Program-made: the position numbers and the translations under genes | Source: Candidatus Micrarchaeota archaeon | GTDB lineage: Archaea; Micrarchaeota; Micrarchaeia; Micrarchaeales; CABMGC01 | Reading direction: 5' to 3' | DNA: 64,000 nt | Assembly: GCA_021852055.1 (NCBI GenBank) | Contig: JAJZOD010000003.1 | Coordinates: 82,846-146,845, forward strand | Shown: positions 2-39,997 of the stretch, one piece after another | How positions within the stretch are numbered: the first letter of the stretch is position 1 | How the letters are laid out: every line of letters starts with the position of its first letter | Notes under the pieces: generated by a model | What the model saw: the letters and a program-made list of their open reading frames with translations, nothing else | Told to the model about the DNA's origin: nothing | Databases searched by the model: none

Positions 2-3000
2 GGAACAGGCAGCACCAGCAGCGTAACAACAGGAGACCTTCAGAACGGCCTTGAAGGACCGGTGCCTCCAAATGCAACCAGCAACAATTCTACAGTCAAA
101 GTGCAGCTCCAGTACTCTGCAAGTTCGCCATCAATAACAGCAACATACGAAGCAAGCACAGGCAATGTGATAGTAACGGGCAGCGGCTTCACCCCCGGGG
201 GCTCGGTCAGCATATCAGTCAGCTCCACATCCGGCACAAGCCTTGCAACTGTAAGCACAACAGCCAGCTCTGCTGGCGATATTAACTCTCAGATACCTGT
301 GTCATCTTACAGCGTAGGCAACCTCGATATCTCCGCAATAGACGTGAAAACGTTTGCATTTAGCAACACCGCAGAGGTTTCTATTACCAGCTCTCCTCCT
401 TCCTCGTTAAGCATAACAGCAACATACGAAGCAAGCACAGGCAATGTGATAGTAACGGGCAGCGGCTTCACACCCGGAGGCTCGGTCTCACTTGCATTCA
501 ATATTAACCACCAGATAGGCAGTACGACGACATACACAACTACTGCGGATTCAAGTGGTGGCATAAACTTCCAAGAGCCTGCTGCAAAACAGCCAACTGC
601 TTATATCTATTACATCGAAGCTACTGATGTACAAACAGGAAGCACAAGTGCAGAAGCGTCGGTAAATGTGCCGGCAATAGTCATACCAACAATGTCACTA
701 ACTGCATCTTATGACGCTGCTGCTGGCACTATCTCAGTCAGCGGCTCCGGCTTCACTCCCGGAGGCGCGGTGAATGTGCAGTTGTTCCTGAGCAGCTCCA
801 ACAGCTTCGTGAGCAGCGTCGCTGCAGTTGCAGGCTCAGATGGAGACTTCACAACTTCAATAAACGTAAACAGCCAGGAAACAAGCGCAATAACGTACTA
901 CGTCATGGCTACAAATAAAGACACAAATGCTGCAGCAAAAAGCGGCTCGGTCACAGTGCCTGCTGCTGCCCAAAACCCAGAGAACATAAACGCAGTATAT
1001 AACGAGCAACTTGGTGCAGTGGTTGTCACAGGCTCCGGCTTCAACATCAACACCAAAGTAACAGTAAGCTGCGTTGTATTATACGGCACTAACCCTGCTC
1101 CATCCTCTGTCTCAGATGCATGCACTGCAACTACACAGTCAAATGCCACAGGCGGCATAAATGTTACCCTTCCTCCAATGAGTCCATCGCCAAACTATTA
1201 CATATACGAGAACATATACGCGTTGGAGATAAACAGCCAGGGTGTATCGTTCGGTCCCGGAGCCTCAACACACATTACAATACCACAAAGGAGCGCAGGA
1301 ACAACTGCTTTGATAAAGCTTGAGAATACCAATGCAAACGGCATCTGCTCCAATGTATCCTGCTTCCAGCTTACATACAGCCAGCCAAGCCAGCTCAGCA
1401 GCCTGCAGCTGCAGGACATAGCTGCATCGCCGAGCGGCCAGCAGGTCTATATTACCGGACAGTTCGCAAGCGGCATATACGTAATGAGTGGCAATGATCT
1501 CTCGCTGCAATCAACAATCCCTCTCACGTTCTCTGCAAGTTCCGGCACTACAACGAATATTGGCAGCATAACTCCGGCTAATCTGAACATTACATACTGG
1601 CTTGCAAACAACGGGCTCTACAACCAGTCTATCTCTTTCACAAAGCCTGGCAGCCAGTACATAACTGGAGGCTCCGGCTTCGACCAGGCATATTTCCACC
1701 ACCCGCTCGGCATAGCTGATGTGAATGGGTACCTATACGTGCTTGACGACTGGAAGGGTATAGTAAGCAGCTCGGATGCAAATGCAAACAGCGGCACCTC
1801 TACAAGCGGTATATTCTTCAATATAGTAATGCTAAGGGTCCTAAACTCAACAGGCTCAAACGTGCCTATACAGCCTACATTCTTCAATGACATGTACAAC
1901 AATATCGCCTGCACGCCTACTGGCTACCTTGCAACCCACCAGAACACCTGCATACCAAGCACAACCCTACAGAATGTAAAGAACAGCGACTGGTGCACAG
2001 TCAACGAGCAAACAGGCCAGGCGTGCTCCATAGCGCCCATATCAGGTTCGTGCACTTTCTCATCGTTAGGCAGTGCAATAGCAGGCAGTTTCACCGGTGG
2101 TGGAGTCAACTATGCAGAGTACCAGTGCATAAGCACGGGCTCCCTTTCATCAAATTACACCTCGCTTGCTACAGGTTCAGGCTCATACAACAAAAACGTA
2201 TATCCCCCTTATGGCTGGGTAATTTCTGCAAACATAACCGGCGTAAGCAACGGAGCCGTAGGCCAGTCCTATAGCTTATGCTCGTCATTCAGCTGCACGA
2301 AGAATCCGACACAGCTTCTAGGCGGGGCAAACTCCTACCTGGAGGGATATGCGCCTGTAGGTCCACAGCTGCGTGCAGTCGGAAGCTGCAGCAGAGCAGG
2401 GGAATGCAACGCCTTTGAAACAATCTACAGCCCTGGCTTCTCAGTCAACTACAACAACACTGCTGTTATACTGTTCCCCAATTCAACAAACAGCAACAGC
2501 GCCCATGGGACAGATGAAGGCTTAGACAACTGGGGCGAGATACTCATCGCAAACATAAACTGGCAGAACTATACTAACTTGTTTTCGGGAATCACCAACT
2601 ATACCTGTTATGTAAAAGGCGAGGAGAACGGCAATCAGAATGTCTGCGGCGGAAAGTTTGTGAACGACCACTACTATTACACGTACAACAGCCTAGTCGA
2701 CAGCTTTACTGCGCCGATATACCTGCTTGGAGATCCGTTCAAGTATTACGAGAATCTTGGAACATCGCCTGTTCTGGGCTTTGCAAACCAGTTCTACTCA
2801 ACATACAACAACGGCAACCAGGGTTCTGGTTCCGGTTCGCCGCAAAGCCAGATATCTTCACAGTGCACGCAGCAGGTCCAGTCCGGTAGCATACCGACGG
2901 CATGCCTGGGGGCCAGCGGAACGCCTCCTACCCCAAGCCTGTCCGGCCTAAGCCTTGGCACTACAACTGGCCAGCTCGCAGTACCAATACTTTCTACGCC

Positions 3001-4738
3001 TCTGCTTCAGAGCAGCGTCAGCGGCGTAGTTCTTGTACCTTACACATACAGTGGTACTCTTGTGCAGAACTGGAGGGACTTCCAGCTCTTGTTCGGCGGA
3101 TACGGATGCCCCGGAAGCCTGCCCGACTGGCCTACAGTTACAACAAACAAGATAGAGTACACTTATCAGGAAGTGCCTGTATCGTCGAAGCCTACTCCTC
3201 TGGCAGCAAACATAGAGGGCGGCGATACATACATCGGTTATAGGGACGCGCTGGGCAGCGACATATACATGCCGAACCTGTCGGATTTTGGCGTATCGCT
3301 GCCTCCGCAGGTCCTGTTCAATGTGTCGAGCAACAGGGTTTTCGGAAACATATACATAAACCTGACAAACAACAAGACTACAAACAAACAGACGCTGCTT
3401 AATGCCACTGAAAGGCTCGAATACGTAGTGAATACATACAGCATAGGGCAGTACATGAAATTCCAGAGCATAAGCTCTGTGCCAGTAGGCCCATATTACG
3501 GCACACAGTACGCTGCAAGGCTTCAGAACAAGCCTAGTACCAATATAGCAACAGGCTTAAACTACACCCAGCTGCCTTCCGGAGGCTCTGGTTTTGTCTA
3601 TCTTAACCTTTTCAATATCTATAAGCAGTTTGTCTGGCAGAGCCCTCTAAACCTCTATATAAACAGCACAGCCCAGGGCCTGCCTTATGGGTACAGGCGC
3701 CTGATTTATGTATATCAGGACAGGTTCAACAACACCATATTCATGCCATTGGACGCTGACATAGCTAAGTTCACTGTCATCAACATGAGCGTAATCCCGA
3801 GCATAAACCCGACAAATGCAAACCAGACAACACTGCAGATAAACGGCACTGTAGGCTACTACCAGTTCAGCAACAACGGCCTTGTGTTCGAGCCGCTTAC
3901 GGGCAACAGCCTGTACCTATACTACAACACCAATCTCAATTATATTGATTATCCTCCGACTACAGATGCGTTCCATGCAACTGCGTGCGCCTTCGGTTCT
4001 CCTGTAAACAAATTCATCCAGACCCTCACATGCAACCTTGCAAATCCTATAAATTCACCGCAATCTGCAACTGCCAATATAGTGACATACAGCCCGCAGT
4101 ACAATGCACAGGGCGCATGCAACCCAGCAAACGTACTTCTGCCTCCAGTAAATTACAACTGCAATGTGTACAACAGCGGCAAGCAGTGCAGTACAGGCCC
4201 TTACGGCCAGCGCGAATACTGCGTAGGGCTGGATTCACAGGGCGATGGCATATGCACCAGCCAGGTGGGTCTTATAGGCGTAGTGCCTACAAATGCGCTT
4301 GGGTACTTCTCGACAAATATAGTGGCTTGCGGAATAGCCGATGTAAACATACAGGCAAACTTCTATGGCTCGCCGCCTCCGGAGCCTGTCAATGCCACAC
4401 AAGCGCCTTTGGGCATGGCTGCAAATGTCGCAATTCCAGATACGGGCGTGCCTCTGCCAGGGACAAACTTCCAGCACCCTACGCAGATCACATTCCCTGT
4501 TGACAACTACACATGGCTGAACAATGACACCATAGTACAGGCCCAGATAGGCCTTTGGGAGCTAGCTTACGGCGACATTCAGGCCCTCGAGGTTATAGGG
4601 CTGATTTCGTTAGTCGGTGCTGTAATAGCCGCAAAGCTCATATTAGAGTCCCGAAGCAAAACCAGAAGGAAAAGCGTTAAAAATAGAATAAGAAAACCAG
4701 AGAGAACAAGCCATAGAAACCGTAGAAACAATAAATAA
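2..4738 (+). CDS. Giant surface (S-layer/adhesin-like) protein, 5'-truncated by the window edge. Has tandem Ig/IPT-like domains, an NHL-like segment and a C-terminal TM anchor with a basic tail
   Basis: The reading frame is open from nt 2 with no upstream stop. The motif TGSGFTPGG recurs four times in the first ~350 aa. Composition is N/S/T/G/Y/C-rich with many N-x-S/T sequons. The C-terminus LISLVGAVIAAKLIL is followed by RSKTRRKSVKNRIRK. Confidence 0.8.
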   Translation, partial: GTGSTSSVTTGDLQNGLEGPVPPNATSNNSTVKVQLQYSASSPSITATYEASTGNVIVTGSGFTPGGSVSISVSSTSGTSLATVSTTASSAGDINSQIPVSSYSVGNLDISAIDVKTFAFSNTAEVSITSSPPSSLSITATYEASTGNVIVTGSGFTPGGSVSLAFNINHQIGSTTTYTTTADSSGGINFQEPAAKQPTAYIYYIEATDVQTGSTSAEASVNVPAIVIPTMSLTASYDAAAGTISVSGSGFTPGGAVNVQLFLSSSNSFVSSVAAVAGSDGDFTTSINVNSQETSAITYYVMATNKDTNAAAKSGSVTVPAAAQNPENINAVYNEQLGAVVVTGSGFNINTKVTVSCVVLYGTNPAPSSVSDACTATTQSNATGGINVTLPPMSPSPNYYIYENIYALEINSQGVSFGPGASTHITIPQRSAGTTALIKLENTNANGICSNVSCFQLTYSQPSQLSSLQLQDIAASPSGQQVYITGQFASGIYVMSGNDLSLQSTIPLTFSASSGTTTNIGSITPANLNITYWLANNGLYNQSISFTKPGSQYITGGSGFDQAYFHHPLGIADVNGYLYVLDDWKGIVSSSDANANSGTSTSGIFFNIVMLRVLNSTGSNVPIQPTFFNDMYNNIACTPTGYLATHQNTCIPSTTLQNVKNSDWCTVNEQTGQACSIAPISGSCTFSSLGSAIAGSFTGGGVNYAEYQCISTGSLSSNYTSLATGSGSYNKNVYPPYGWVISANITGVSNGAVGQSYSLCSSFSCTKNPTQLLGGANSYLEGYAPVGPQLRAVGSCSRAGECNAFETIYSPGFSVNYNNTAVILFPNSTNSNSAHGTDEGLDNWGEILIANINWQNYTNLFSGITNYTCYVKGEENGNQNVCGGKFVNDHYYYTYNSLVDSFTAPIYLLGDPFKYYENLGTSPVLGFANQFYSTYNNGNQGSGSGSPQSQISSQCTQQVQSGSIPTACLGASGTPPTPSLSGLSLGTTTGQLAVPILSTPLLQSSVSGVVLVPYTYSGTLVQNWRDFQLLFGGYGCPGSLPDWPTVTTNKIEYTYQEVPVSSKPTPLAANIEGGDTYIGYRDALGSDIYMPNLSDFGVSLPPQVLFNVSSNRVFGNIYINLTNNKTTNKQTLLNATERLEYVVNTYSIGQYMKFQSISSVPVGPYYGTQYAARLQNKPSTNIATGLNYTQLPSGGSGFVYLNLFNIYKQFVWQSPLNLYINSTAQGLPYGYRRLIYVYQDRFNNTIFMPLDADIAKFTVINMSVIPSINPTNANQTTLQINGTVGYYQFSNNGLVFEPLTGNSLYLYYNTNLNYIDYPPTTDAFHATACAFGSPVNKFIQTLTCNLANPINSPQSATANIVTYSPQYNAQGACNPANVLLPPVNYNCNVYNSGKQCSTGPYGQREYCVGLDSQGDGICTSQVGLIGVVPTNALGYFSTNIVACGIADVNIQANFYGSPPPEPVNATQAPLGMAANVAIPDTGVPLPGTNFQHPTQITFPVDNYTWLNNDTIVQAQIGLWELAYGDIQALEVIGLISLVGAVIAAKLILESRSKTRRKSVKNRIRKPERTSHRNRRNNK
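134..486 (+). repeat. Two near-identical 74-bp segments (134-207 and 413-486) spaced 279 bp (93 codons) apart inside the surface-protein gene
   Basis: A 59-nt core (ataacagcaacatacgaagcaagcacaggcaatgtgatagtaacgggcagcggcttcac) is identical in both copies and there are 2 mismatches in the next 15 nt. Both encode SITATYEASTGNVIVTGSGFTPGGSVS. Confidence 0.9.
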
Positions 4739-5049: not shown

Positions 5050-5955
5050 ATGGCAGCCAAACCACAAGCCGTATCAACAAGTGGGCACTCAAGGAGGAAT
5101 ACGATAGCAATAATACTGGTGGCGCTGTCAGTTTTTGTAGGATTGTACATAATAACAAAGTATACTGGCTTTGCGCCAAGCACAAATTCGCAGGAGATAG
5201 CGCTCAGCGCAATAATAGGCATACTCGGCATTGAAGTTCTGGGATTTATAATCTATATGTACATGAAGGGGTCATTAAAGGAGGAGGAAGCCAGCACGCT
5301 GAGGAATCTTTTCCGTATAATAGGCTACACTATTCTTGTAATATTCCTGTTCTCGCTGCTTTCAATAAACATCACTGGCCTGCTGCTGACAACGGGCTTT
5401 CTCGGCATAGTACTGGGTCTTGCAGCCCAGTCAACGCTCTCAAACTTTATCTCAGGAGTGTATCTGCTTTCAAGCAAGGCATTCGAACCAGGAGACAGGG
5501 TTGTAATACACACCTGGCAGTATACAATGCAGCCGCAGAGCTACCCACATGACAAATTTGTTCCTGGCTTTTCCGGGAAGATCAAGAACATCGGGCTTTT
5601 GTATACAGAGCTCACCAACGATGAAAGTGTACCTGTCTACATGCCAAACAGCATAGCAGCAAGCGCCCTCATACTCAACTACGGCCGCGCAAAGGAGGAG
5701 TTTGTAAACTTATTGTTTGACATGCCTGTATCAGTGCCATTTGAAAATGTCAAGAAGCGCATACAGGAAGTCCTCAAATCTAAGAAGGTGACTAATTACA
5801 AGATAAATATGGAGTACCTGCATAATGACATATATGTTGTAACTGTACGCATGGAGTGCGAGTTTCAGGACAGGAGGCAGCTCCGCTCGGAAATATACCA
5901 GAAGATAGTCACCGACATCCAGCGCAGCCCAAAAAGGCATGATAAAAAGCAATAA
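5050..5955 (+). CDS. Small-conductance mechanosensitive channel (MscS family)
   Basis: N-terminal TM helices plus the pore-helix-like motif GLAAQSTLSNFISGVYLLSSKAFEPGDRV. Confidence 0.8.
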   Translation: MAAKPQAVSTSGHSRRNTIAIILVALSVFVGLYIITKYTGFAPSTNSQEIALSAIIGILGIEVLGFIIYMYMKGSLKEEEASTLRNLFRIIGYTILVIFLFSLLSINITGLLLTTGFLGIVLGLAAQSTLSNFISGVYLLSSKAFEPGDRVVIHTWQYTMQPQSYPHDKFVPGFSGKIKNIGLLYTELTNDESVPVYMPNSIAASALILNYGRAKEEFVNLLFDMPVSVPFENVKKRIQEVLKSKKVTNYKINMEYLHNDIYVVTVRMECEFQDRRQLRSEIYQKIVTDIQRSPKRHDKKQ

Positions 5956-5997: not shown

Positions 5998-6109
5998 GGG
6001 CTCGTAGCGCAGTGGCAGCGCGCCCGCTTTGCAAAACTTCTTGGAAAGAAGTTTTATCAAGAAGAACCAGAAAAGCGGAAGGTCGCGGGTTCGAATCCCG
6101 CCGAGTCCA
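5998..6109 (+). tRNA. tRNA-Ala(UGC) with a 40-nt intron at the canonical 37/38 position (intron 6034-6073). CCA is not encoded
   Basis: Manual cloverleaf. Acceptor GGGCTCG/CGAGTCC includes the G3:U70 Ala identity pair. D arm GCGC-AGTGGCA-GCGC. Anticodon arm CCCGC-TTTGCA[intron]A-GCGGA, with a C27-A43 mismatch. Variable loop AGGTC. T arm GCGGG-TTCGAAT-CCCGC. Discriminator A. Confidence 0.85.
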
Positions 6110-6142
6110 TAAAACTTCTTGGGAAGAAGTTTTATCAAGAAG
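6033..6142 (+). repeat. 32-nt hairpin-containing repeat, once inside the tRNA-Ala intron (6033-6064) and again immediately 3' of the tRNA (6111-6142)
   Basis: aaaacttcttggaaagaagttttatcaagaag versus aaaacttcttgggaagaagttttatcaagaag, with one substitution in the hairpin loop. The 10-bp stem is AAAACTTCTT/AAGAAGTTTT. Confidence 0.9.
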
Positions 6143-6176
6143 CTGAAGGAAATTTAAGTGACAAACGCGCAAGCGG

Positions 6177-6210
6177 GTCTGGGTGCGATTGCGGTTTCAA
6201 AGCCGAATCC
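6177..6210 (+). repeat. Left copy of a 34-bp perfect direct repeat (gtctgggtgcgattgcggtttcaaagccgaatcc)
   Basis: Identical to 10724-10757. The 3' part gccgaatcc resembles the tRNA-Ala T-loop/stem segment ttcgaatcc. Confidence 0.9.
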
Positions 6211-6309
6211 CATCCCCAATTTTTTACTGTGGTATTTGTTCTTTAGTAATGAACAATAGTGTTCATTGGTAATGAAAACATTTAAATATCTTAGGCTCTA
6301 AATGAAATC

Positions 6310-7530
6310 ATGATACTAAAAGAAACACTTAGACAGATAGTCAAAGCTCAGAGGAAAGACTTAGAATCGTTCAGCTACGGGGTAGAAAGGGAAGAGTTGA
6401 ATGAGATAAAACTCAATATGCATTACGCATTGATACTATCAGGTATAAGGCGATGTGGTAAGAGTACTCTACTTCACCAATTGCTTAAAAAGCTTCCAAA
6501 TTTCTATTATCTAAACTTTGAGGACACACGGCTAGATAGCTTTCAAGTTGAGGATTTCGAAAAGTTAGATGAAATCTTCAAGGAAGATTACGGTGAATCC
6601 GAATATTATCTTTTCGATGAAATACAGAATATTTATAAATGGGAGCTTTTTGTAAGATCCAGACTAGACAAACAGAAGAAATTTATTATTACAGGCTCTA
6701 ACGCTTCACTTTTAAGTAAGGAGCTTGGTACTAGACTCACGGGCAGACACATCAACATGGAACTGTTTCCATTCTCCTTTATGGAGTCGCTTTCTATGAC
6801 TAAGGTAAAGGCAAGCGCAACTTCATTCTCAGAATACTTAAGAAGCGGAGGGTTTCCAGAATATCTGAGATATAAAAAACAAGAAATACTGCGCGAGTTA
6901 TTAACAGACATAATACAAAGAGATATTATAGTAAGACACAAATTGCGCGATTCTAAAACAGTAAAGACACTTGCGTTATATCTGCTTAGTAACACGGGCA
7001 ACGAGTTTTCATATAATAACCTTAAGAAGATGTTCAATCTGGGATCAGTGAATACCGCAATAGCATTTGTTTCTTATTTTGAGGACAGCTACCTTCTATT
7101 TACTGTGCCAAAGTTTGATTACTCGCTTAAAAAACAGATAGTTAATGCCAAAAAAGTATATTCTATAGATAATGGTCTTTCTACCTCAAATTCAGCTTCG
7201 TTCTCTTCAGATTTAGGAAGGATGTTAGAAAATTCTGTATTCTTGCATCTTCGTAGGAAATATAAAGAAATATTCTACTTCAAAGGAAAAAGAGAATGCG
7301 ATTTCTTAGTAAAGGAGCAAAGCAAGATAAAAATGGCAATACAAGTCTCGTATGAGCTAAACGAAGGAAACAAACAGAGAGAATTTGACGGACTTCTTGA
7401 AGCTATAAAAAAGTTTGATTTGGCAGAAGGATTAATACTTACATTTGATCAAGAAGACAAATTCGAGATTGAGGGAAAACACATAATAGCAAAACCGGTT
7501 TGGAAATGGATGCTAGAAAGCAATTTGTAG
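6310..7530 (+). CDS. AAA-superfamily ATPase of the AAA_14/DUF4143 type
   Basis: Walker A motif SGIRRCGKST and Walker B-like motif YYLFDEIQ. Length (~400 aa) and a C-terminal region (ECDFLV) are typical of the archaeal DUF4143 ATPase family. Confidence 0.75.
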   Translation: MILKETLRQIVKAQRKDLESFSYGVEREELNEIKLNMHYALILSGIRRCGKSTLLHQLLKKLPNFYYLNFEDTRLDSFQVEDFEKLDEIFKEDYGESEYYLFDEIQNIYKWELFVRSRLDKQKKFIITGSNASLLSKELGTRLTGRHINMELFPFSFMESLSMTKVKASATSFSEYLRSGGFPEYLRYKKQEILRELLTDIIQRDIIVRHKLRDSKTVKTLALYLLSNTGNEFSYNNLKKMFNLGSVNTAIAFVSYFEDSYLLFTVPKFDYSLKKQIVNAKKVYSIDNGLSTSNSASFSSDLGRMLENSVFLHLRRKYKEIFYFKGKRECDFLVKEQSKIKMAIQVSYELNEGNKQREFDGLLEAIKKFDLAEGLILTFDQEDKFEIEGKHIIAKPVWKWMLESNL

Positions 7531-7791
7531 TGTATGAAAGTGAAAAAAGAGATTAAAATTGTTTTGCCTATAAGTCCGTGTTCAAAAGAAATATCTCCAA
7601 TTTGGATTTTACCGAGTACACAAACCTTTTTGGAAATGTTTGGCGAAAACACTGGGTGCGGTTACAGCTAGATTTACACCGTATCTGTTTATATTTCTAA
7701 ACGCGGTGTAATCTGTGTGCGAAGACACAGATGTTCGCATTTTCCGAAATATGATCTACGGTGTCTTGAATGGCTAGAAAAATAGACGACA

Positions 7792-7853
7792 GGGCTCGTG
7801 AGCGCGTTCCGTTCGCAACAGAAAGGTCGCGGGTGCGATCCCCGCCGAGTCCA
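7792..7853 (+). pseudogene. Decayed 62-nt copy of tRNA-Ala. Both acceptor strands and the T arm are kept, while the D and anticodon arms are deleted
   Basis: GGGCTCGTGAGCGC...TTCGCAACAGAAAGGTCGCGGGTGCGATCCCCGCCGAGTCCA aligns to both ends of the 5998-6109 gene and keeps the last bases of its intron (CAGAA). It is followed by a third copy of the trailer hairpin (7855-7876). Confidence 0.75.
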
Positions 7854-7878
7854 TAAAACTTCTTAAAAAGAAGTTTAT

Positions 7879-8511
7879 TCAATATGGATTACTTAGTTTG
7901 CCAGAATCTGCCAAAAGCTTATATTTTTTTACAAAATTAAGTACAGATTTGGAAGTGTGCTTATCATACACCTTTAGGTATTTGTGCACTTTTTTGATTT
8001 CTATGGACCGCAAAAGTCCATCATAGTTCTGAGGAGGTAACTTTACTTTGTAATAGAACAGGTCTATTAACGTCTTCTCTGGATCTGAAACTGGCAATTT
8101 TAACACACCGTAATTTATTATATCAAACCCAAAAAAGTATCTTGTTGGCATATGGTGCACAAATATAACATCTTTAGGATCGTCGAATATTGTCGTACGG
8201 TTTGAACGTATTTTTTTTATTGTGAGTATTTCTGGTCTAGAATTCTGTATCCAAAGATCCCTTAATGTTAGTGCAGATAGCAACCCATAATAAAAAGGTG
8301 TATACGCAAACCCCGATACCATATCATTCTTTTTAAATGTATATACGCTTTTTTTCAATGAATACAAATCACCATTACTTTTCATGTATGATAAGATTCT
8401 CGTAAGATTTGATGATTTTATCCTCTTATTGCTGAAGTATAGTCTAAGGTCTCTGTGTGTGAAAACTGGATAATCTGAAAAATGCCTGGTTATTTCATTA
8501 ACTATTGTCAT
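7879..8511 (-). CDS. abiEi: AbiEi-like antitoxin/transcriptional regulator (COG5340-type, N-terminal wHTH)
   Basis: The N-terminal pattern ...PVFTHRDLRLYF...LTRILSYMKSNGDLYSLKKSVYTF and the C-terminal pattern ...LPVSDPEKTLIDLFYY are typical of AbiEi. It overlaps the adjacent nucleotidyltransferase gene by 14 nt. Confidence 0.65.
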   Translation of the reverse strand: MTIVNEITRHFSDYPVFTHRDLRLYFSNKRIKSSNLTRILSYMKSNGDLYSLKKSVYTFKKNDMVSGFAYTPFYYGLLSALTLRDLWIQNSRPEILTIKKIRSNRTTIFDDPKDVIFVHHMPTRYFFGFDIINYGVLKLPVSDPEKTLIDLFYYKVKLPPQNYDGLLRSIEIKKVHKYLKVYDKHTSKSVLNFVKKYKLLADSGKLSNPY

Positions 8512-9187
8512 TTATCCACTCCTTAAGTCTGTTTATCATTAGTTCAAACGATGGCGGCAGACCTGTTATTATCAAGTGATCCAGACTTGAGATATCTGAA
8601 GGGGGATTATTTTCTATCTTGGCAACCAGATTCTTTATTTTTTTAACAGTTTTATGGTCAGCCTTTTTTATTAACGAAACCAAATACCACATGTCATATA
8701 AGTCATGGGCTTCTGGATGCTTGAAGCCATCCTCATCATTAAGCTTATCTTCATATGCTACTATTTTCTCCTCCAATAAATCTACTGGGCTAAGAGATAG
8801 TACCACAATTTTGCTTTCATCAATCTTTGAATAGTCAGCGTGTATGCCTTTCTTATACTTAAAATTTATATCGATCTTCATTTTTGTGCCAACTAATTCG
8901 ACAATAAAATGCATTGTGTCATTTGACCTGCTGTATCCTTTTTCCTTAATCACAAACCCATTTTCTTGCAGAAACTTAGAAACTGCTCGGTATTCTTGCA
9001 TCTTTTCCGAAACTGTTTTCACTTTCATATAAAAATCAAGATCCCTCGAAAATCTGTTCCCTGAATAGCAACGCCATATTGCTGTTCCACCATGAAACAC
9101 GAGATTCGTATATCTACTGTATAATATCTCAATTAGTATATCTTCAAGTTTTGCTTTTTCAACTTGTGCTGGGTCTCTTAAGTTCAT
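8498..9187 (-). CDS. abiEii: AbiEii/AbiGii-family nucleotidyltransferase toxin (type IV TA / abortive infection)
   Basis: Motif FHGGTAIWRCYSGNRFSRDLDFY matches the family signature GGTAL..Y...RFS.DLDF. Size is 229 aa. Confidence 0.75.
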   Translation of the reverse strand: MNLRDPAQVEKAKLEDILIEILYSRYTNLVFHGGTAIWRCYSGNRFSRDLDFYMKVKTVSEKMQEYRAVSKFLQENGFVIKEKGYSRSNDTMHFIVELVGTKMKIDINFKYKKGIHADYSKIDESKIVVLSLSPVDLLEEKIVAYEDKLNDEDGFKHPEAHDLYDMWYLVSLIKKADHKTVKKIKNLVAKIENNPPSDISSLDHLIITGLPPSFELMINRLKEWINDNS

Positions 9188-9208
9188 AATATCATTAACT
9201 ACACTTTA

Positions 9209-9224
9209 TTACATATTTATGTAA
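9209..9224. promoter_or_regulatory. Perfect 16-bp palindrome TTACATATTTATGTAA 22-37 nt upstream of the abiEii start. Candidate autoregulatory operator overlapping the promoter
   Basis: The inverted repeat is read directly from the sequence. AbiEi proteins are known to autoregulate through promoter inverted repeats. Confidence 0.35.
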
Positions 9225-9281
9225 TAATATACATTTATATAACTGTATGTTAAAACAAACCGTTGTAGCTTTATCCGAAAG

Positions 9282-9712
9282 TCATAGACAACTTAAGAAT
9301 ATTATACCCAGTAGGACTTTTTTGATATAATGTTCGCCAATAAGTTTCGTCTTTCCGTATAGCGTTGGTGGGTCTTGATTTACACCGAGTGTAGAAATAT
9401 ATAGTACCTTAGAATTAATCATGTTTGCAGCCGTAACCACGTTTTTGGTTCCTTCAGAATTAATTGCGAGGGCACTTTTAGGATATTCTTCACATACTTT
9501 CCTACTTGGAATTGCAGCAGCATGTATAGTTAATTCCGGCCTTATGGTTAAGAAAGCTTGAACAACCGCTTCCTTATTAGTAATGTCCAGTTCTATTAAT
9601 TCATTGAATAATTTGTTTTTCTGAAATGTGCCAATTAATTCATAGTGCTTGCTTAGGTTCGTGAATATGCTTGCGCCTACATACCCGTTGCTCCTGTAAC
9701 TAAGATCTTCAT
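9282..9712 (-). pseudogene. Frameshifted and 3'-truncated NAD-dependent sugar reductase/epimerase (RmlD / dTDP-4-dehydrorhamnose reductase-like)
   Basis: The minus strand reads MKILVTGATGM* and then, after a -1 shift, GYVGASIFTNLSKHYELIGTFQ...IHAAAIPSRKVCEEYP...STLGVNQDPPTLYGKTKLIGEHYIKK. This contains a Rossmann GxxGxxG and a YxxxK. It ends after ~140 aa, against ~280 aa expected. Confidence 0.7.
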
Positions 9713-9713
9713 T

Positions 9714-10574
9714 CTAAAACTTTGTTTGATTTATATCTATGACAATTGGTGCGTGGTCACTCGGAGGCTCAAGGTTTTCTATAGGGACGCGCTCTTCTTT
9801 GTCTACCCATATCCGATCTACCAGACCTAGAATACCTTTGTCACCTAGGACTAAATCGAAACGCAGACCTTCGTCACGGTTAAATCCATCACGCATGTAA
9901 GGCCACCATGTGAAAACACGCTCTTGGGTTTTTGTTCGGAGTATGTCTTGAAGCCGTGTTCCTTGAAGTCTCTTTAGCCAAGCTCTTTCTTCTGGAGTAC
10001 AATGGATCCGGTCCTTAAGTCCTTCTGGATCCCATACGTCGCAATCGTCTGGAGCAACATTAAAATCACCCACAATAAGAAGAGGAGGAGTTCGAGGGAG
10101 ATGTTGCAGCCAATCTCCAAAAGTTTCCATCCAACGGCCTTTAAGCAGGAATTTATCGCTAGTTCTGTCGTCTCCGTTTATCACATAAGCATTAACCAAT
10201 CGCACTCCTCCAATACACGCCGATATTACTCTGGCTTCATCAGACGCAGGATCTTTTGGAAAACCACGCAAAACTTCAGAAAACTCTAGATTATTTTTCA
10301 TTTCATCCACCGTGGAAAGCTTGCTTTTAGGAAAAGCCGTTAAATTGTGTTGTTTAGCTTGACCACGAATCAGGATTGCCACACCATTATAGCTAGTTTG
10401 GCCGTAAAGTATTGAATAGTAACCTGCAGTGCTCAATTGGGCTTCAGGAAAATCTTTGTTAGCTACCTTAGTTTCTTGCAAGCACACCACGTCCGGTCTA
10501 TGGCGTTTGACTAAGGCCAAAAACCTAGGTAGTCGTGCTCGGATAGAATTTACATTCCAAGAGATAATGCGCAT
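9714..10574 (-). CDS. xth: Exodeoxyribonuclease III (AP endonuclease, EEP fold)
   Basis: MRIISWNVNSIRARL...VVCLQETK...GDFNVAP...SDHAP, the full ExoIII motif set. Confidence 0.9.
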   Translation of the reverse strand: MRIISWNVNSIRARLPRFLALVKRHRPDVVCLQETKVANKDFPEAQLSTAGYYSILYGQTSYNGVAILIRGQAKQHNLTAFPKSKLSTVDEMKNNLEFSEVLRGFPKDPASDEARVISACIGGVRLVNAYVINGDDRTSDKFLLKGRWMETFGDWLQHLPRTPPLLIVGDFNVAPDDCDVWDPEGLKDRIHCTPEERAWLKRLQGTRLQDILRTKTQERVFTWWPYMRDGFNRDEGLRFDLVLGDKGILGLVDRIWVDKEERVPIENLEPPSDHAPIVIDINQTKF

Positions 10575-10723
10575 AAGTAGTATTTGTAGTAATTATTTAT
10601 TAAAAGGGTGGTGCCGAATCCCGCGTCTTCATATGCATGGGCTAGACATGACCCTGCTCACCCATTTTTCTTCCGATTTCCTTACTGATGTATCTAAAGC
10701 AACGTATTTTACAAGTTTGAAAA

Positions 10724-10757
10724 GTCTGGGTGCGATTGCGGTTTCAAAGCCGAATCC
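10724..10757 (+). repeat. Right copy of the 34-bp perfect direct repeat
   Basis: Identical to 6177-6210. Another fragment, gccgaatcccgcg (10613-10625), resembles the tRNA-Ala T-arm 3' half. Confidence 0.9.
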
Positions 10758-10838: not shown

Positions 10839-11015
10839 ATGTCCAAAAAATTTGCATGCAAGGATATAGGTATATCGTGTGGTTTTGAAGCACGTGCAGG
10901 CTCTGAAGCAGATCTGATGAAGAAGATAGCTGCTCATGCCAAAAAAGCGCATAACATGTCTGAGATAGACTCAGCTACAATGGCAAAAGTAAAAGCAGCT
11001 ATAAAAGAAGCCTAA
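10839..11015 (+). CDS. DUF1059-family small protein
   Basis: MSKKFACKDIGISCGFEA... The ATG at 10839 is preceded by AGGTGAT. The ORF-track start at 10824 is a TTG. Confidence 0.6.
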   Translation: MSKKFACKDIGISCGFEARAGSEADLMKKIAAHAKKAHNMSEIDSATMAKVKAAIKEA

Positions 11016-13310: not shown

Positions 13311-14399
13311 TTATTCACTGTCATCAAAAATCTTGTCAAGGTCAAGATCTCCGGAGCCGCTGCCGCCTTTTCTTAAATTCAGATTCGAATAGTCTGCAAA
13401 TTCTACGCCGCCCATTACAACCATGACCTTGACTGCGCTTTTCTGCATTGATGCATCAATGCGGGCGCCCCATTTCATCATGGCGTCCTCACTTATCCTC
13501 CCTGCAACCTCCTGGAATACCTTCTCTGCCTCGCGTAGCGTTAGGTCTTCTCCTCCCACTATGTTTACAAGGGCTTTTTTAGCTTTAGACAAGTCTACAT
13601 CAAGAAGCGGAGAGTTAAGCGTATTGTTTATGGCTATGGATGCCCTGTCGCTTGTTTGCGTCGAGTTCGCCTCGCCTATGCCTATCACTGCATAGCCGGA
13701 GTCCTTGAGAACACTCCTGAGGTCGGCAAAATCAAGGTTGACCATGCCTGGTTTGGTGACCATCTCAACGATGCCTTTTGTTGCGTTTGCAAGCACTTCG
13801 TCGCTTATCCTGAAGGCCATATTGAGCGGCAGGTCAGGGGCTACAGCCAGCAACTTGTCATTAGGTATTATTATTGTAGTATCTGTTACCCTTTTTAATT
13901 TTGAAAGGCCCTCAAGCGCATTACGCATGCGTGCCTTGCCTTCGCTTGAGAACGGGAGCGTTACAATGGCAACTGTAAGTGCGCCTGCCTCTTTCGCCTC
14001 ATGCGCTATTATGGGTGCAGAGCCGGTCCCTGTGCCACCTCCAAGCCCGCATGTTATAAACACAAGCTGCGAGCTTTCAAGCACATGGCGTATCTCATCC
14101 TTGCTCTCTACGGCAGACTCCTCACCCATTTTCGGATCAGAGCCTGCTCCAAGGCCTTTTGATACCCTCTTTCCTATAAGCACCTTCCTGTTTGAACGCG
14201 TTTTTGCAAGATGCGATGCATCTGTGTTCATGGCTATAAGCGTAGTGCCATCTATGTTGAGCTCTGATACCCTTGATATGGTGTTCGAGCCGCTCCCTCC
14301 GGCACCTACTATGCATATCTTCGGCTTGGCAGACTCTATAAACTTGAGAAGCTCTTCATCATCCTGTGATATCACTGCATTGCTAATTACATCAGACAT
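13311..14399 (-). CDS. ftsZ: Cell division GTPase FtsZ
   Basis: Tubulin signature GGGTGTGSAP, plus NTDA and VGAGGSGSN motifs. Confidence 0.95.
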   Translation of the reverse strand: MSDVISNAVISQDDEELLKFIESAKPKICIVGAGGSGSNTISRVSELNIDGTTLIAMNTDASHLAKTRSNRKVLIGKRVSKGLGAGSDPKMGEESAVESKDEIRHVLESSQLVFITCGLGGGTGTGSAPIIAHEAKEAGALTVAIVTLPFSSEGKARMRNALEGLSKLKRVTDTTIIIPNDKLLAVAPDLPLNMAFRISDEVLANATKGIVEMVTKPGMVNLDFADLRSVLKDSGYAVIGIGEANSTQTSDRASIAINNTLNSPLLDVDLSKAKKALVNIVGGEDLTLREAEKVFQEVAGRISEDAMMKWGARIDASMQKSAVKVMVVMGGVEFADYSNLNLRKGGSGSGDLDLDKIFDDSE

Positions 14400-14501
14400 T
14401 TCGTCGCCCTGTTAATATTTATTAGCAAAAACATAAAAAGATTGCTGACAACGGCGTGCCTCCTCTATAATAGCAATTAATAGCAATTCGCATGACTGCA
14501 T

Positions 14502-15116
14502 TCATGGCGGACTTATGAGGTGCGACGATATGGCTGCGCTGCCTATGTAGCCTGCAAGAAGGCTTGCAAATAAGAGCACTATCCAGAAAAGCGCAATAAG
14601 AATGTACCAGCCTATCCAGGGATTCTTCTTAAGCCCTGGAAGGCGCTCGACTACAAGTGCAACAGGATATGAAAGAATGCCGGTAACTCCATACAAGAAG
14701 TATAAGCCAAGCAACGCCATCGGCGCGCTTGTCAAGCCTATGCCATATCCCTCTATGCCATATATGATTACCATCACGCCTACAAGCAGGCCGAGGAAGC
14801 CTACATACTCAAGCCTGACGTTGTATCTTACAGACAGCGCAAATCCCATCAGGAGTATGCCGAACGAGATAAACGGGTCGTAGAATAATATGTTGTAGCT
14901 GCCTGGAAGTGGCCATGTGAACTGGCCCCACAAGCCCACAATCAGCATATACGCCCCTATCAAGCCCAGCGGAACGCCTGCACTGCGCAGATAAACCCCA
15001 AAATCTTTTTTGTTTTTCCTGTAAGCCATATACACCGATGATATCGTATAAAGCAGGATGAAGCCGGCAAAGCTGAGCATGAACAGCGAGTATGCAAGGT
15101 TGTCTATAAATGCCAT
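14502..15116 (-). CDS. Integral membrane protein (about 6 TM helices, possibly DUF981-like)
   Basis: Hydrophobic helices run throughout. No catalytic motif recognised. Confidence 0.5.
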   Translation of the reverse strand: MAFIDNLAYSLFMLSFAGFILLYTISSVYMAYRKNKKDFGVYLRSAGVPLGLIGAYMLIVGLWGQFTWPLPGSYNILFYDPFISFGILLMGFALSVRYNVRLEYVGFLGLLVGVMVIIYGIEGYGIGLTSAPMALLGLYFLYGVTGILSYPVALVVERLPGLKKNPWIGWYILIALFWIVLLFASLLAGYIGSAAISSHLISPP

Positions 15117-15270
15117 ATCCTCTGATTTATGATTAATCAGATATATTTATAACTTTTATGGTATGCAGTTCTATGCCTTTCCGAAACTCGGCTACGCTGC
15201 ATCATCTGCAAATTTATGTAAATTTACGCAGTGTTTATTAATTTTAACATGTAAAGACGTATGATAAATC

Positions 15271-16332
15271 ATGGATATTGATGAGCGGATAGAGATAATA
15301 CGCTCCGAACCTACCGAGGAGATAGTTACTGACCAGGATCTGAGAACAGTGCTTGAAACAAAAGCGCATCCTAAACATTACATTGGCTTTGAGATAAGCG
15401 GCATGCTGCACATAGGCCATGTGCTTGTGGTCGGTAAGAAGATAAACGACCTTGAAAAGGCAGGTGTGCAGACCCAGATACTCATAGCAGACTGGCACAC
15501 TGTGGCGAACCAGAAGCTCGGCGGAGACTGGGAGCGCATTAAAAAAGCTGCCGAGTTTTACAAGAGAGTGTTCAGTTTTGTGTGCCCGAACTCAAAGATT
15601 ATACTCGGCTCTGATCTTTACCACAACAACAACGAGTACTGGAAGGATGTCATGAAAATTTCAGCAAAGACAACCATGGCCCGGGCCACGCGCACTCTCA
15701 TAATTCAGGGCCGGAGCGAGAAGGACACGCTTCATGTGTCGCAGTACATTTATCCTATGATGCAGGTTGCCGACATAAAGGCGCTCGATGTAGACATATC
15801 GCATGCTGGAATGGATCAGCGCAAGGTCCATATGCTTGCGCGCGAGGTGTTCGGAGAGCTGCATGACAAGCGGCCGCTTGCGCTGTTGCATACGCATCTG
15901 CTGCAGTCGCTTCTCGAGCCTCAGAAACTGAACGAGAGCGCGACAAAAGAGGAGATAGCAACTGCAATGAAGATGAGCAAATCAAAGCCAGGCTCCGGAA
16001 TAAACATCCTTGCAGGAAAGGAAGAGATCAAGCGCATAATCTCCGGAGGCTGGTGTCCTGAGGGTGTCACAGAAGGCAATCCGATACTGGGCCTGTGCAG
16101 GTATGTAATATTCCCCCACCTCAAGACAATGAAGATAGAGCGCAGCAGCAAATACGGCGGCGACATCGAATTTTCATCCTACAGGGACCTAGAAGAGTAC
16201 TTCGCCGGGAAGAAGCTGCATCCTGCTGATCTTAAAAGTGCTGTCGCATCGTCCATGATTAAGATTATCTCCCCAATATCTGACAGGTTCTCCGGAGAAA
16301 AAGAGGAGCTGGGGCGCCTTTTTGCTGTCTGA
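15271..16332 (+). CDS. tyrS: Tyrosyl-tRNA synthetase (class I)
   Basis: HIGH motif (LHIGH), KMSKS motif, and GMDQRKVHMLARE matching archaeal TyrRS GMEQRKIHMLARE. Confidence 0.8.
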   Translation: MDIDERIEIIRSEPTEEIVTDQDLRTVLETKAHPKHYIGFEISGMLHIGHVLVVGKKINDLEKAGVQTQILIADWHTVANQKLGGDWERIKKAAEFYKRVFSFVCPNSKIILGSDLYHNNNEYWKDVMKISAKTTMARATRTLIIQGRSEKDTLHVSQYIYPMMQVADIKALDVDISHAGMDQRKVHMLAREVFGELHDKRPLALLHTHLLQSLLEPQKLNESATKEEIATAMKMSKSKPGSGINILAGKEEIKRIISGGWCPEGVTEGNPILGLCRYVIFPHLKTMKIERSSKYGGDIEFSSYRDLEEYFAGKKLHPADLKSAVASSMIKIISPISDRFSGEKEELGRLFAV

Positions 16333-16384
16333 TGCCTCGCATTTATTTTAGCAGTCATCTGCTTCTCGCAGTGCAAATTACATT

Positions 16385-16585
16385 AATGTGCAAGCCTGGC
16401 AGCATATCCAAAAGCCAAGTGCAGGCAGGAAAAGGCACGCCGGGATTGGGACTTTCACAACCTTTAGTTTTAATCAAACTTTCCCTAAAAGCCTGTTTTG
16501 AACCCAAAAGGCCCGAAGGCCACCAGATCTCGAGTTTCGCCGCGCACACTGGCGCGATACCTGGTTCTGCCATCCCGGCTCAAGA
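16385..16585 (-). ncRNA. Candidate structured non-coding RNA of unknown class. Strand is tentative
   Basis: The gap between tyrS and the next gene is 311 nt with no credible ORF. Minus-strand structures are a GGCC-UUCG-GGCC hairpin (16510-16521), a CGCGC/GCGCG hairpin (16541-16556), a 7-bp helix ACCAGGU/AUCUGGU (16559-16565 with 16522-16528) and a long-range 8-bp helix GCCGGGAU/AUCCCGGC (16572-16579 with 16439-16446). Confidence 0.3.
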
Positions 16586-16643
16586 ATAATTGGCAAACAA
16601 ACCTTATTAATCTTGTCTTGGCGTATCTTTAGACTGTGCGGAT

Positions 16644-19832: not shown

Positions 19833-20147
19833 ATGCTATACATCAAACTGTACGAAACAGAAAAAGGAAGCATAGTAGCCCTGTGCGATGAAGGTCTTCT
19901 GGGGAAGAAGTACACAGACAAGCGCACCGGTGCAGAGCTTGATCTTAATAAGTACTCGGACTTTTATAAAGGCGACCTTGTCAATGCAGAGGAGGCAAAG
20001 CGAATAGTCTCACAAGAGTACATCTATTCTGCAAATGTGGTCGGCAATGAATCCGTAAGCCTTATGGTCGATGTTGGCCTTGCAGCAAGTGATGAGATAA
20101 AAATTATCGCCAAAGTCCCCTCTCTCCATATATATCGCCTGCTGTAA
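19833..20147 (+). CDS. DUF424-family protein
   Basis: MLYIKLYETEKGSIVALCDEGLLGKKY... matches the DUF424 pattern. The last 9 codons lie within the 37-bp repeat. Confidence 0.55.
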   Translation: MLYIKLYETEKGSIVALCDEGLLGKKYTDKRTGAELDLNKYSDFYKGDLVNAEEAKRIVSQEYIYSANVVGNESVSLMVDVGLAASDEIKIIAKVPSLHIYRLL

Positions 20148-30312: not shown

Positions 30313-30392
30313 AAAACTACCTAATATATTATTACAGGCAAGATATTAAAGTGCTTTGCATGAATAAATAATCTGTCAAAATTTGTGATGTA

Positions 30393-31436: not shown

Positions 31437-31452
31437 AACAAACTTAGTAAAA

Positions 31453-32424: not shown

Positions 32425-32495
32425 TATATCGTTACTGATTCTTCGCTAACATTTAAATATTTGGTAAGTCATCTATAAGTAAGTACGGTATAATT

Positions 32496-33752: not shown

Positions 33753-33762
33753 TTGATACTTT

Positions 33763-34731: not shown

Positions 34732-34733
34732 AA

Positions 34734-37599: not shown

Positions 37600-37713
37600 G
37601 ATTATAATTTATACTCTTTCAACAGTTCCTTATAAATCCCTATCCTAAATATTGATAGCTGCAGATACCGAGCACCATAAGTTATTAGATTCTACTTTTC
37701 TAATACCTTTGAT

Positions 37714-38778: not shown

Positions 38779-38811
38779 AGCAATATATACATTGCTTATG
38801 TCAGTGGTTAA

Positions 38812-39993: not shown

Positions 39994-39997
39994 GCGT

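Follow-up and report, generated by a model that had tools for sequence, protein, structure and literature searches.

Bacterial islands at transfer RNA (tRNA) genes and the fossil elements of Sulfolobus accrete in tandem, are bounded by repeats of the tRNA 3′ part, carry toxin–antitoxin (TA) or defense cargo, are AT-rich and vary among strains. In lambda-like systems, the attachment site of the element (attP) contains arm-type integrase-binding sites. In this study, we analyzed a locus of this general kind in a Candidatus Micrarchaeota archaeon, within a 64,000-nt stretch of DNA (the window, to whose positions all coordinates without a label refer; L001 to L038 are labels of the compared contigs and genomes). 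A tRNA-Ala(UGC) gene is followed there by a 4.5-kb block with an exact copy of a 34-bp repeat at each end. Our preferred reading, to which we assign a probability of about 0.72, is that this gene is an integration hotspot with a fossil tandem array of at least four successive elements, reshaped by deletions between integrase relics. The two repeats would be homologous pieces of two tandem integrase genes and not the attachment (att) sites of one island. An initial annotation of the same DNA had proposed a fossil island in which successive integrations each left an att relic.

All known suicidal integrases, superfamily 25_02, are marked by PF16795 (PMC8371274). Compared to these SSV-type or type I integrases (SSV1, pTN3 and pT26-2; PMC8371274, PMC7253208), the elements studied here exhibit several common features. 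First, the target is a tRNA gene, and part of the tRNA is repeated at the element ends (in the window, L012 and L028). Second, the tRNA-identical att sequence would lie within the integrase reading frame; after integration, the tRNA would be followed by the body of the integrase, and a short N-terminal piece would remain with the promoter side at the opposite end. Third, as in the elements of Sulfolobales and Thermococcales, there is tandem integration with decayed int(N) and int(C) relics and fossilization, and excision would need a related integrase in trans. They differ in that the family matches PF00589 only and lacks the PF16795 signature of SSV-type sequences, in that the hosts are Micrarchaeota metagenome-assembled genomes (MAGs) and not known hyperthermophiles, and in that att lies at the extreme 5′ end of the gene, with only ~14 putative codons upstream, and the gene may survive integration. 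Should integration truly split the genes of this family, the "suicidal" architecture would extend beyond hyperthermophiles and would not be monophyletic.

As with the pNOB8-type or classical archaeal integrases, whose attP lies outside the gene, the integrase gene stands directly beside the reconstituted tRNA on the same strand. The family would be of this type if translation began after the tRNA-like core, but every Ala-type member examined has an open reading frame (ORF) that continues through the core. Like tRNA islands (see PMC8371274), the locus has a tRNA 3′ part repeated at a boundary, displaced older elements, TA and defense cargo, AT-rich DNA (6216–9267 is deviant in composition, the rmlD′–xth part is not) and presence or absence of the block between conserved flanks. 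Unlike in those islands, the conspicuous repeat is a conserved piece of an integrase gene rather than an att site, and it is this repeat that sets the population indel. Systems of this kind are known, and the novelty lies in the lineage, the integrase family and the proposed role of integrase relics as anchors for deletion.

The 34-bp repeats and their integrase gene family

The tRNA-Ala gene, hairpin, ATPase gene, tRNA copy, abiEii–abiEi pair, rmlD fragment, xth gene and two exact 34-bp copies listed in the initial annotation are all present. The array is composed of the following features.

5998–6109, + strand: tRNA-Ala(UGC), attB/attL of the array (Rfam RF00005, 56.9 bits; exons 5998–6033 and 6074–6109)
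6034–6073, + strand: predicted tRNA-Ala intron, a near-copy of the element hairpin (hairpin H) with the start of an integrase leader
6110–6214, + strand: probable 5′ relic (105 nt) of an integrase gene, consisting of hairpin H (6110–6143), variable leader (6144–6176), 34 bp (6177–6210) and CATC
6177–6210, + strand: left 34-bp copy, with native integrase sequence on both sides, opening with the motif GTCTGGGTGCG
6310–7530, + strand: intact ORF of an AAA_14/DUF4143 ATPase (AAA_14 2e-35; DUF4143 1.6e-21; PADLOC PDC-S01 6.7e-114)
7623–7791, + strand: conserved right-end module typical of the element family, presumably the side of attP with the integrase promoter (CACTGGGTGCGG motif at 7650–7661; putative integrase start codon at 7770)
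7792–7853, + strand: tRNA-like sequence without D arm, with CGC anticodon arm (Rfam 32.2 bits, gathering score 29)
7854–7878, + strand: 25-nt relic of hairpin H, probable start of a further older integrase gene, ending at the AbiEi stop codon (−7.0 kcal/mol, z −4.8)
7879–9260, − strand: AbiE cassette including promoter, with AbiEi and AbiEii genes overlapping by 14 nt
7879–8511, − strand: AbiEi (PADLOC 5.5e-13)
8498–9187, − strand: AbiEii nucleotidyltransferase (PF08843 2e-14; PADLOC 8.9e-17)
9268–9713, − strand: rmlD-like pseudogene (PF04321 9.6e-17), N-terminal half only, with two 1-nt deletions
9714–10574, − strand: xth, exonuclease III family, intact (PF03372 5.4e-24)
10613–10625, + strand: possible further att-like relic GCCGAATCCCGCG (10-mer GCCGAATCCC in common with the end of the 34-bp repeat; nhmmer E = 2.9)
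10724–10757, + strand: right 34-bp copy, probable sole remnant of an older integrase gene, joined on its right side to host DNA (GAAACATC...)

The repeat, GTCTGGGTGCGATTGCGGTTTCAAAGCCGAATCC, is exact at both sites and was found only twice in the 64 kb with three mismatches allowed, compared to 0 copies expected (100 shuffles). In a scan of one genome per species, its 27-nt core occurred in three genomes, two labelled Micrarchaeota and one Marsarchaeota, with one copy in each. In all three, the core lies in-frame within a tyrosine-integrase ORF (336 amino acids in L013, truncated in L012 and L011) that directly follows tRNA-Ala(UGC or CGC) or its last 12–13 nt. The order in these genomes is that of the window: tRNA 3′ end, hairpin, ~33-nt leader, 34 bp, CATCAAGCC... 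and the rest of the integrase. Because the 34 bp lies in-frame inside the integrase ORFs of three genomes, the repeats are best taken as integrase sequence and not as tRNA relics. The initial annotation had noted that a common dispersed repeat would speak against its proposal; with two copies where none is expected, and a core present in three species-representative genomes only, once each and always inside an integrase gene, a chance or dispersed repeat has almost no probability.

The 105 nt directly after the tRNA gene are collinear with the integrase ORFs of L013, L012 and L011, and tblastn aligned residues 16–60 of the L013 integrase with 6079–6213 (E = 4e-20). This segment, whose hairpin (12-bp stem, −9.9 kcal/mol, z −3.96) had been described as a tRNA trailer, in all likelihood belongs to an integrase gene, of which the 105 nt next to the att site were kept and the remainder was deleted. 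The right copy has non-integrase sequence (the xth side) to its left and host sequence to its right. Folded as RNA, the 34 bp is ordinary (z −0.29); it encodes the Cys-rich peptide SGSGCDCG.

It was also proposed that the 34-bp repeat and 10613–10625 resemble the T arm and are among several tRNA 3′-half relics left by integrations. Indeed, GGGTGCGATT equals the T-stem/loop of the L012 tRNA-Ala, GCCGAATCC resembles the acceptor 3′ strand GCCGAGTCC, the 10-mer GCCGAATCCC is found at 10613–10622 as well as at the end of the repeat, and the 34-bp copies rank just under the true tRNAs in a profile search. However, that nhmmer search of the window with a tRNA-Ala 3′ profile gave E = 5.9 and 9.1 for the 34-bp copies and E = 2.9 for 10615–10624, none of them significant, and only the tRNA, the pseudo-tRNA at 7792–7853 (E = 8e-11) and a tRNA-Lys were significant. 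Furthermore, the 34 bp sits 67 nt downstream of the tRNA-like core, is in-frame in the three integrase ORFs and conserved across integrase subfamilies, and the true att repeats of these elements are tRNA copies. It is very improbable that the repeats are degenerate tRNA-Ala 3′ halves unrelated to the integrase gene. The statistical claim of several tRNA-half relics was dropped; of the sequences so described, only 7792–7853 is statistically solid.

The integrase family has 526 homologues. The L013 integrase matches PF00589 (1.1e-11) over profile positions 3–169 of 172, and R150, H268-x-x-R271, H295 and Y304 are invariant in 21 sequences. These features of a tyrosine recombinase are found in the relatives only, the window keeping ~35 N-terminal codons. 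In a Pfam scan of the integrase at E ≤ 0.01, PF00589 alone was matched and PF16795 (Phage_integr_3) was not. The best solved relative is XerA (4a8e, 6.7e-8), and there was no clear match to SSV1 integrase. Many called N-termini are translated tRNA 3′ parts in two frames (..AGANPAES.. or ..RFPPSP..), and more distant members read through tRNA-Leu or tRNA-Val. The element family is widespread in Micrarchaeota, with elements at tRNA-Ala in L013, L023, L025 and L029; intact ones stand at tRNA-Ala(CGC) beside the gene of the CCA-adding enzyme. Their cargo in relatives includes HerA/FtsK-like ATPases, methyltransferases, SIR2, GmrSD, HNH and AbiE. Genomes with intact integrases have only one 34-bp copy, the bounds of the element being tRNA repeats: in L028, the tRNA 3′ repeats at 9914–9938 and 20073–20097 are ~10 kb apart, and in L012 two tRNA-Ala copies surround the integrase.

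The attachment region of this family has a fixed layout. It starts with a right-end module, in which a hairpin and two copies of the motif (G)TCTGGGTGCG are followed by ~150 nt with a putative integrase start. Next is the tRNA-Ala-like core, often with a hairpin behind it, and then a variable leader. The conserved block GTCTGGGTGCGATTGCGG... comes after the leader, and another copy of the motif separates it from the remaining part of the PF00589 tyrosine integrase. The ORF is open through the tRNA-like core in L011, L012, L013, L023 and many database members. In L013, no ATG or GTG occurs from the tRNA to codon 78, yet the conserved protein sequence starts before that codon, and a tandem junction in L028 (20010–20200) has a putative ATG and ~14 codons before the core, in-frame with the next integrase. 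Since the integrase frame is open through the core, integration at the tRNA would leave the body of the gene next to the tRNA, whereas the module and its putative start would come to lie at the opposite end of the element.

Three observations concern the same regions. A second DNA block, ~440–500 nt after the tRNA (L013 ~6440–6500; coding for FESRELVVKTEKAMTLDTLL), is 0.9–0.96 identical across subfamilies. The truncated integrases of L011 and L012 both end just past this block, at the same point in different genomes. A hairpin of type AAAACTTTTTACGAAAAGTTTTATCAAAAA opens the right-end module just before GTCTGGGTGCG (L028 9664–9697 and 19822–19857; L025 ~13500 and ~15150), and the hairpin recurs as a building block at three kinds of site: behind the tRNA, within its intron and where the module begins.

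Within the window, an "ATPase element" can be delimited. The stretch 7623–7853 matches L028 at 9708–9938 (86%) and at 19866–20098 (81%), and in L025 the AbiE cassette lies between weaker copies of this module. The 230-nt module and ~13 codons from a putative start (ATGGCTAGAAAAATAGACGAC... at 7770) precede the pseudo-tRNA, with 48 of 50 positions in 7770–7819 identical to the L028 junction. The same D-armless tRNA-like form is found in L028 (9877–9938), and 6079–6138 and 7823–7882, each covering the tRNA 3′ part and hairpin, are 87% identical over 60 nt. The tRNA copy with its hairpin noted in the initial annotation is therefore real as a sequence; as for its assignment, 7792–7853 is probably the right attachment site (attR) of the ATPase element. 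The N-terminal piece in the window is in the ..PPSP frame, compared to ..PAES for the left relic; since the frames differ, the right end of the ATPase element and the left integrase relic belong to different elements. Rather than a single island with att sites of its own at the two ends, the block is pieced together from remnants of several elements and includes an internal attL/attR pair. It was correctly stated that no functional integrase survives, but traces of integrase genes remain: the 105 nt, the putative start with the 230-nt module, the 25-nt hairpin relic and the right 34-bp copy.

A further fossil tandem array was observed in a different genome. Downstream of an intact element in L025, three right-end-module copies (13537–17132) flank two cassettes, one with AbiE and one with PadR/YgaP.

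Population alleles and the history of the locus

Alleles were collected by exact-protein look-ups from contigs whose flanks are 98.6–100% identical to the window. Two host genes frame the locus in the window.

5050–5955, + strand: MscS-type channel gene, left host flank (PF00924 1.2e-09; identical protein on nine contigs)
10839–11015, + strand: DUF1059 gene, right host flank (PF06348 5.6e-21)

The MscS-type gene is kept beside the tRNA in all strains that have this left flank. DUF1059 is followed by genes for a methyltransferase, a pyrophosphatase, an NFACT-domain protein, SecE and FtsZ, an arrangement common to all strains (nine contexts). Among these strains, there are at least six structural alleles at the locus. 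The arrangements, one of them in another context, are as follows.

Allele a, empty (L015, L016, L018 and L019; decayed form in L021 and L022): MscS, tRNA, hairpin, leader, one 34-bp copy, DUF1059
Allele b (L003 with L001, L034 and L035): the window arrangement
Allele c (L009): variant trailer and repeat, then an integrase pseudogene
Allele d (L004): ATPase element, then a different attR and VapBC
Allele e (L002): divergence directly after the ATPase gene
Allele f (L014): tRNA-Ala with a 19-nt intron, hairpin, leader, radical-SAM, intact RmlD, xth, right 34 bp, DUF1059
Allele g (L017): intronless tRNA-Ala, a deletion derivative of allele f
Allele h (L032): 6219–10723 at 97.2% identity in another context, with neither 34-bp copy

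The integration hotspot proposed in the initial annotation is thus borne out, as are successive integrations. The spacer between MscS and DUF1059 in L015, L016, L018 and L019 is 336 nt, which is that of the window minus exactly 4,547 bp. The comparison of synteny suggested in that annotation found empty sites in these four and in L021 and L022, with flanks 98.7–99.7% identical; conservation of the block in place, which would have argued against an island, is not observed among near-identical strains. The empty alleles have at least two leader types, and the left relic of the window is a third; their flanks are nonetheless 99% identical. Compared to the window, the L015 leader has 8 differences in ~25 nt, and toward its 3′ end it is similar to the L011 integrase; a further type, with a decayed repeat, is present in L021. 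All leader types of the empty alleles have the identical junction 34bp|GAAAC, and the junction GAATCC|GAAAC of the right copy is common to the empty alleles, L014 and L017. Simple insertion into, or deletion from, the common empty allele was considered and rejected because of this difference in the leader next to the repeat.

From the anatomy, homologies, population alleles and junction positions observed, we infer the following order of events. Elements would have integrated one after another, each newcomer displacing the older ones rightward. The window would accordingly read as tRNA-Ala, a young integrase relic (105 nt), the ATPase element with module and attR, the 25-nt hairpin relic, the AbiE cassette, rmlD′–xth from a further element, the 34-bp remnant of the oldest integrase gene, and host DNA. 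The old relic ending in 34 bp would adjoin DUF1059, and every new element would bring the same segment in direct orientation. Recombination between the two copies would remove the newcomer and all between, while hairpin and leader would stay. Since the 34-bp copies are direct repeats, the loss in such recombination is precisely 4,547 bp, with a single relic remaining. Alleles like this exist, and the window would be the state before the deletion. Leader swaps with a constant junction are what integration followed by relic-to-relic deletion would produce.

A different explanation is that the 4.5-kb block is one integrase-less mobilizable island that circulates with a 34-bp attP, uses an integrase in trans and targets a resident integrase relic, with the repeats as attL and attR. 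The exact presence or absence of the block at the repeat, the switch of flanks exactly at both 34-bp edges and the interior 6219–10723 found as a unit in another context (L032) would agree with this, as would the 34 bp itself, which opens with the conserved motif and ends in the tRNA-3′-like GCCGAATCC, resembling the 12–13-nt core common to L011 and tRNA-Ala. We regard this explanation as unlikely for several reasons. First, the block is composite, with its own internal attL/attR pair and right-end module. Second, L032 lacks both 34-bp copies, and its left neighbor is a tRNA 3′ relic. Third, genomes with intact integrases have a single 34-bp copy and elements bounded by tRNA repeats. Fourth, the leader beside the left copy varies between empty and filled alleles, while a simple insertion at the 34 bp would leave it unchanged. 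The circular junction, which would read ...TTTGAAAA-34bp-CATCCCCAATT..., was not found.

The arrangement might also be an assembly artefact of a mixed population, with an AbiE-bearing and an xth/DUF1059-bearing variant joined and the two repeats never present together on one chromosome. A break in the matching MAG, GCA_027363675.1, is located at 9597–9632, within the rmlD fragment common to several variants, the contig ends at this break carry inverted 141-nt duplications, and several variants share xth. On the other hand, L034 (6943–10357) and L035 (7150–9789) cross the breakpoint at 99.8–99.97% identity, L032 has 6219–10723 contiguous, the rmlD reading frame crosses the break, and the link xth–34bp–DUF1059 is found in L001, L014 and L017. 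An artefact of this type is highly implausible. Inverted duplications of 141–165 nt at contig ends were seen in L001/L020 (window 9457–9597 inverted) and L007 (7779–7943); they were rejected as real inversions, being confined to contig ends of short-read assemblies, and we read them as assembler artefacts at a population branch point.

The motif GGGTGC[AG], usually (G)TCTGGGTGCG, occupies fixed positions in every attachment region examined. The right-end module has two copies and the T arm of the tRNA-like core has one; another two are in the 5′ region of the integrase gene, where the first of them opens the 34 bp. The block CAAGCGGGTCTGGGTGCGATTGCGG is the top-conserved DNA of the first ~440 nt of the integrase region, with pairwise identity of 0.94–0.98 that includes four-fold degenerate positions, compared to 0.36–0.5 for the adjacent leader; the second block, near nt 440–500, is conserved to the same degree. 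The junctions 34bp|GAAAC (host) and 34bp+CATC|ATPase lie at the 3′ end of the 34 bp, which reads GCCGAATCC and resembles the tRNA acceptor 3′ strand GCCGAGTCC. Upstream of its integrase, L011 has nothing in common with the tRNA beyond GCCGAGTCC. The junction xth side|GTCTGGG falls at the motif, and in L032 the module motif is fused to the T arm, again at GGGTGCG. Several, and apparently most, of the rearrangement junctions thus fall at copies of the T-arm-like motif (GGGTGCG) or at the tRNA-3′-like end GCCGAATCC.

With moderate confidence, the T-arm-like copies can be considered putative integrase-binding or secondary crossover sites, or recombinogenic short repeats. Like lambda arm-type sites, they are direct copies of a short motif at fixed distances, two upstream and two downstream of the core. 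They differ from these in that the motif resembles the T arm of the core and is not a separate arm-type sequence, and that two copies lie inside the integrase frame. Alternatively, the Cys-rich motif is conserved at the protein level, or ordinary short-homology deletion is responsible for the junctions.

Several points weigh against the reading of the locus given above. First, the interior block found elsewhere in L032 would also fit a block moving as a unit; to its left there, a right-end module has been shortened and joined to a tRNA 3′ relic, and a membrane protein and an ABC transporter lie to its right. Second, the common leader of the empty alleles is unlike that of the window, so neither derives directly from the other; that the empty alleles were made by deletion between integrase relics and not by insertion is a direction of change that we only infer. 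Third, conservation of the 34 bp could be at the protein level (Cys-rich SGSGCDCG). Fourth, the 45 nt upstream of the right repeat have marginal similarity to module hairpins (p = 0.025–0.43), and a decayed module hairpin before the right copy is tentative on this weak similarity. Fifth, covariation of the motif with the T loop of the target tRNA is ambiguous, being suggestive in the tRNA-Leu subfamily (L036) and not in the tRNA-Val subfamily (L038). Sixth, an ATG directly follows the tRNA in the tRNA-Val subfamily, and integration may leave the gene unsplit. Seventh, no match to the 27-nt core was found in viral and metagenome contig collections, no relatives of the integrase were found in viral contigs (with one protein, then with a 21-sequence alignment), and phage and plasmid collections gave only distant bacterial tyrosine recombinases (25–28% identity); a free circular element was not found in these searches. 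Finally, the window itself is without an integrase.

The locus provides a population record of island turnover in an uncultivated small-genome DPANN archaeon, in which AbiE, VapBC and a candidate ATPase are gained and lost at one tRNA gene. For annotation, it implies that short exact repeats flanking an island can be relics of integrase genes rather than att sites, and that such relics favor deletion of the island.

The predicted intron of tRNA-Ala

The tRNA-Ala(UGC) gene contains an insert of 40 nt at position 37/38, between anticodon-loop positions, which is the canonical archaeal intron position. Because of this insert, ARAGORN in bacterial mode did not call the gene at 5998–6109. Its minimum free energy (MFE) fold gives a cloverleaf (z −3.5). 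A canonical bulge–helix–bulge was not found in the MFE fold of the pre-tRNA, which has a 6×7 internal loop and an intron helix; the ARMAN-type endonuclease tolerates relaxed splice motifs (PMC3239211). The intron is closely related in sequence to the hairpin after the tRNA: 32 of 33 positions are identical between 6033–6065 and 6111–6143, at a spacing of 78 nt, and the intron tail GAACCAGA is similar to the L012 integrase leader. This identity of intron and hairpin is the most unusual by-product of the analysis. It fits a possible delivery of the intron with the element-derived half of the reconstituted tRNA, as in the model of PMC3293823.

Compared to the intron gain in Caldiarchaeum tRNA-Thr (Sugahara et al. 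2012, PMC3293823), the present case is alike in that tRNA introns vary among close strains at an integration locus and in that the element-derived part of the tRNA may carry the intron in. It differs in that the intron copies (32/33) the element's own hairpin directly 3′ of the tRNA, a sequence-level link that is absent there. Through this link, the long-standing idea that archaeal tRNA introns originate from mobile elements becomes open to direct testing and, if true, an element-delivered intron would be a sequence-level example of it.

Three alleles of tRNA-Ala(UGC) were seen, with the 40-nt intron (window 5998–6109), with an unrelated 19-nt intron (L014 6243–6333) and without intron (L017 2873–2944). 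Each has a different left flank, and all have one common right flank that is 99.2–99.8% identical. The mixed flanks suggest chromosome rearrangements or allele replacement at this tRNA.

A broader proposal can be put forward tentatively, although we consider it somewhat doubtful. The PF00589 family of Micrarchaeota may have evolved the attP-inside-gene architecture independently of SSV, pTN3 and pT26-2. Its attachment region might be made up of T-arm mimics (GTCTGGGTGCG) acting as binding or secondary crossover sites, old integrase relics might be anchors that delete new elements precisely in integration–cleansing cycles, leaving a swapped leader, and the 40-nt tRNA-Ala intron might have been delivered by an element.

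Cargo, composition and neighboring DNA

The cargo was described as defense-type in the initial annotation, and the ATPase and AbiE indeed match defense-gene models (PADLOC). The ATPase matches the model PDLC04787 (PDC-S01; 6.7e-114) full-length, with residues 24–404 on profile positions 10–409 of 412. It is also present in L002 to L007 and L032, and may be a single-gene defense system, PDC-S01 itself being a candidate system only. Like the AbiE type IV TA and abortive-infection systems, the pair at 7879–9187 consists of overlapping genes in one operon, an AbiEii nucleotidyltransferase (PF08843/DUF1814) with a GGTA...DLD motif adjoining its AbiEi partner, and has an inverted repeat in the promoter; it differs from described AbiE in its archaeal context. 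The inverted repeat, TTACATA-TT-TATGTAA at ~9207–9222, is conserved in L025 (~15085–15105) and is a candidate operator for AbiEi. By these similarities, both the ATPase and AbiE would act in defense.

The AbiE cassette of L025 (81–87% protein identity) stands directly after an att relic, and a more distant pair in L012 (38–43% identical) has the same position after an att copy. In both, AbiEi abuts the att copy without the 25-nt hairpin relic. On its other side, the cassette meets rmlD′ at ~9268. The rmlD fragment aligns with an intact 277-amino-acid gene in L014, relative to which it has its two 1-nt deletions. The empty-site alleles lack xth, which occurs in L014, L017 and L032. As a related observation, a called 462-amino-acid gene in L014 (~6433–8055) extends upstream to include a CxxxCxxC radical-SAM motif (RCPVGCKDC); radical-SAM, RmlD and xth form one module, which is truncated in the window and in L017.

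The cargo had been described as AT-richer than its neighbors. The composition profile places 6216–9267, with the ATPase and AbiE, lowest in GC (34.4%, below every other 3-kb window, with a minimum of 35.7% and a mean of 43.8%) and most deviant in tetranucleotides (distance 0.40 compared to a maximum of 0.366 elsewhere). The description does not extend to rmlD′–xth, which is host-like at 40.9% GC though it lies inside the variable block.

Some neighboring features of the window were also recorded. The left flank at 62–4738 encodes a giant Ser/Thr/Asn-rich surface-type protein (3348 amino acids in relatives) with internal 75-nt repeats at 134–208 and 413–487. A long stretch at ~30000–41000 has a GC content of 0.345–0.40, compared to a window mean of 0.435, and may be a second foreign region. 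At 51682–51852 (+ strand), inside a 700-nt stretch without long ORFs beside a ribosomal-protein-like gene, tblastn gave weak matches (E = 0.004–0.03) to the C-terminal catalytic region of the integrase family described above, which may represent a further integrase relic, or chance.

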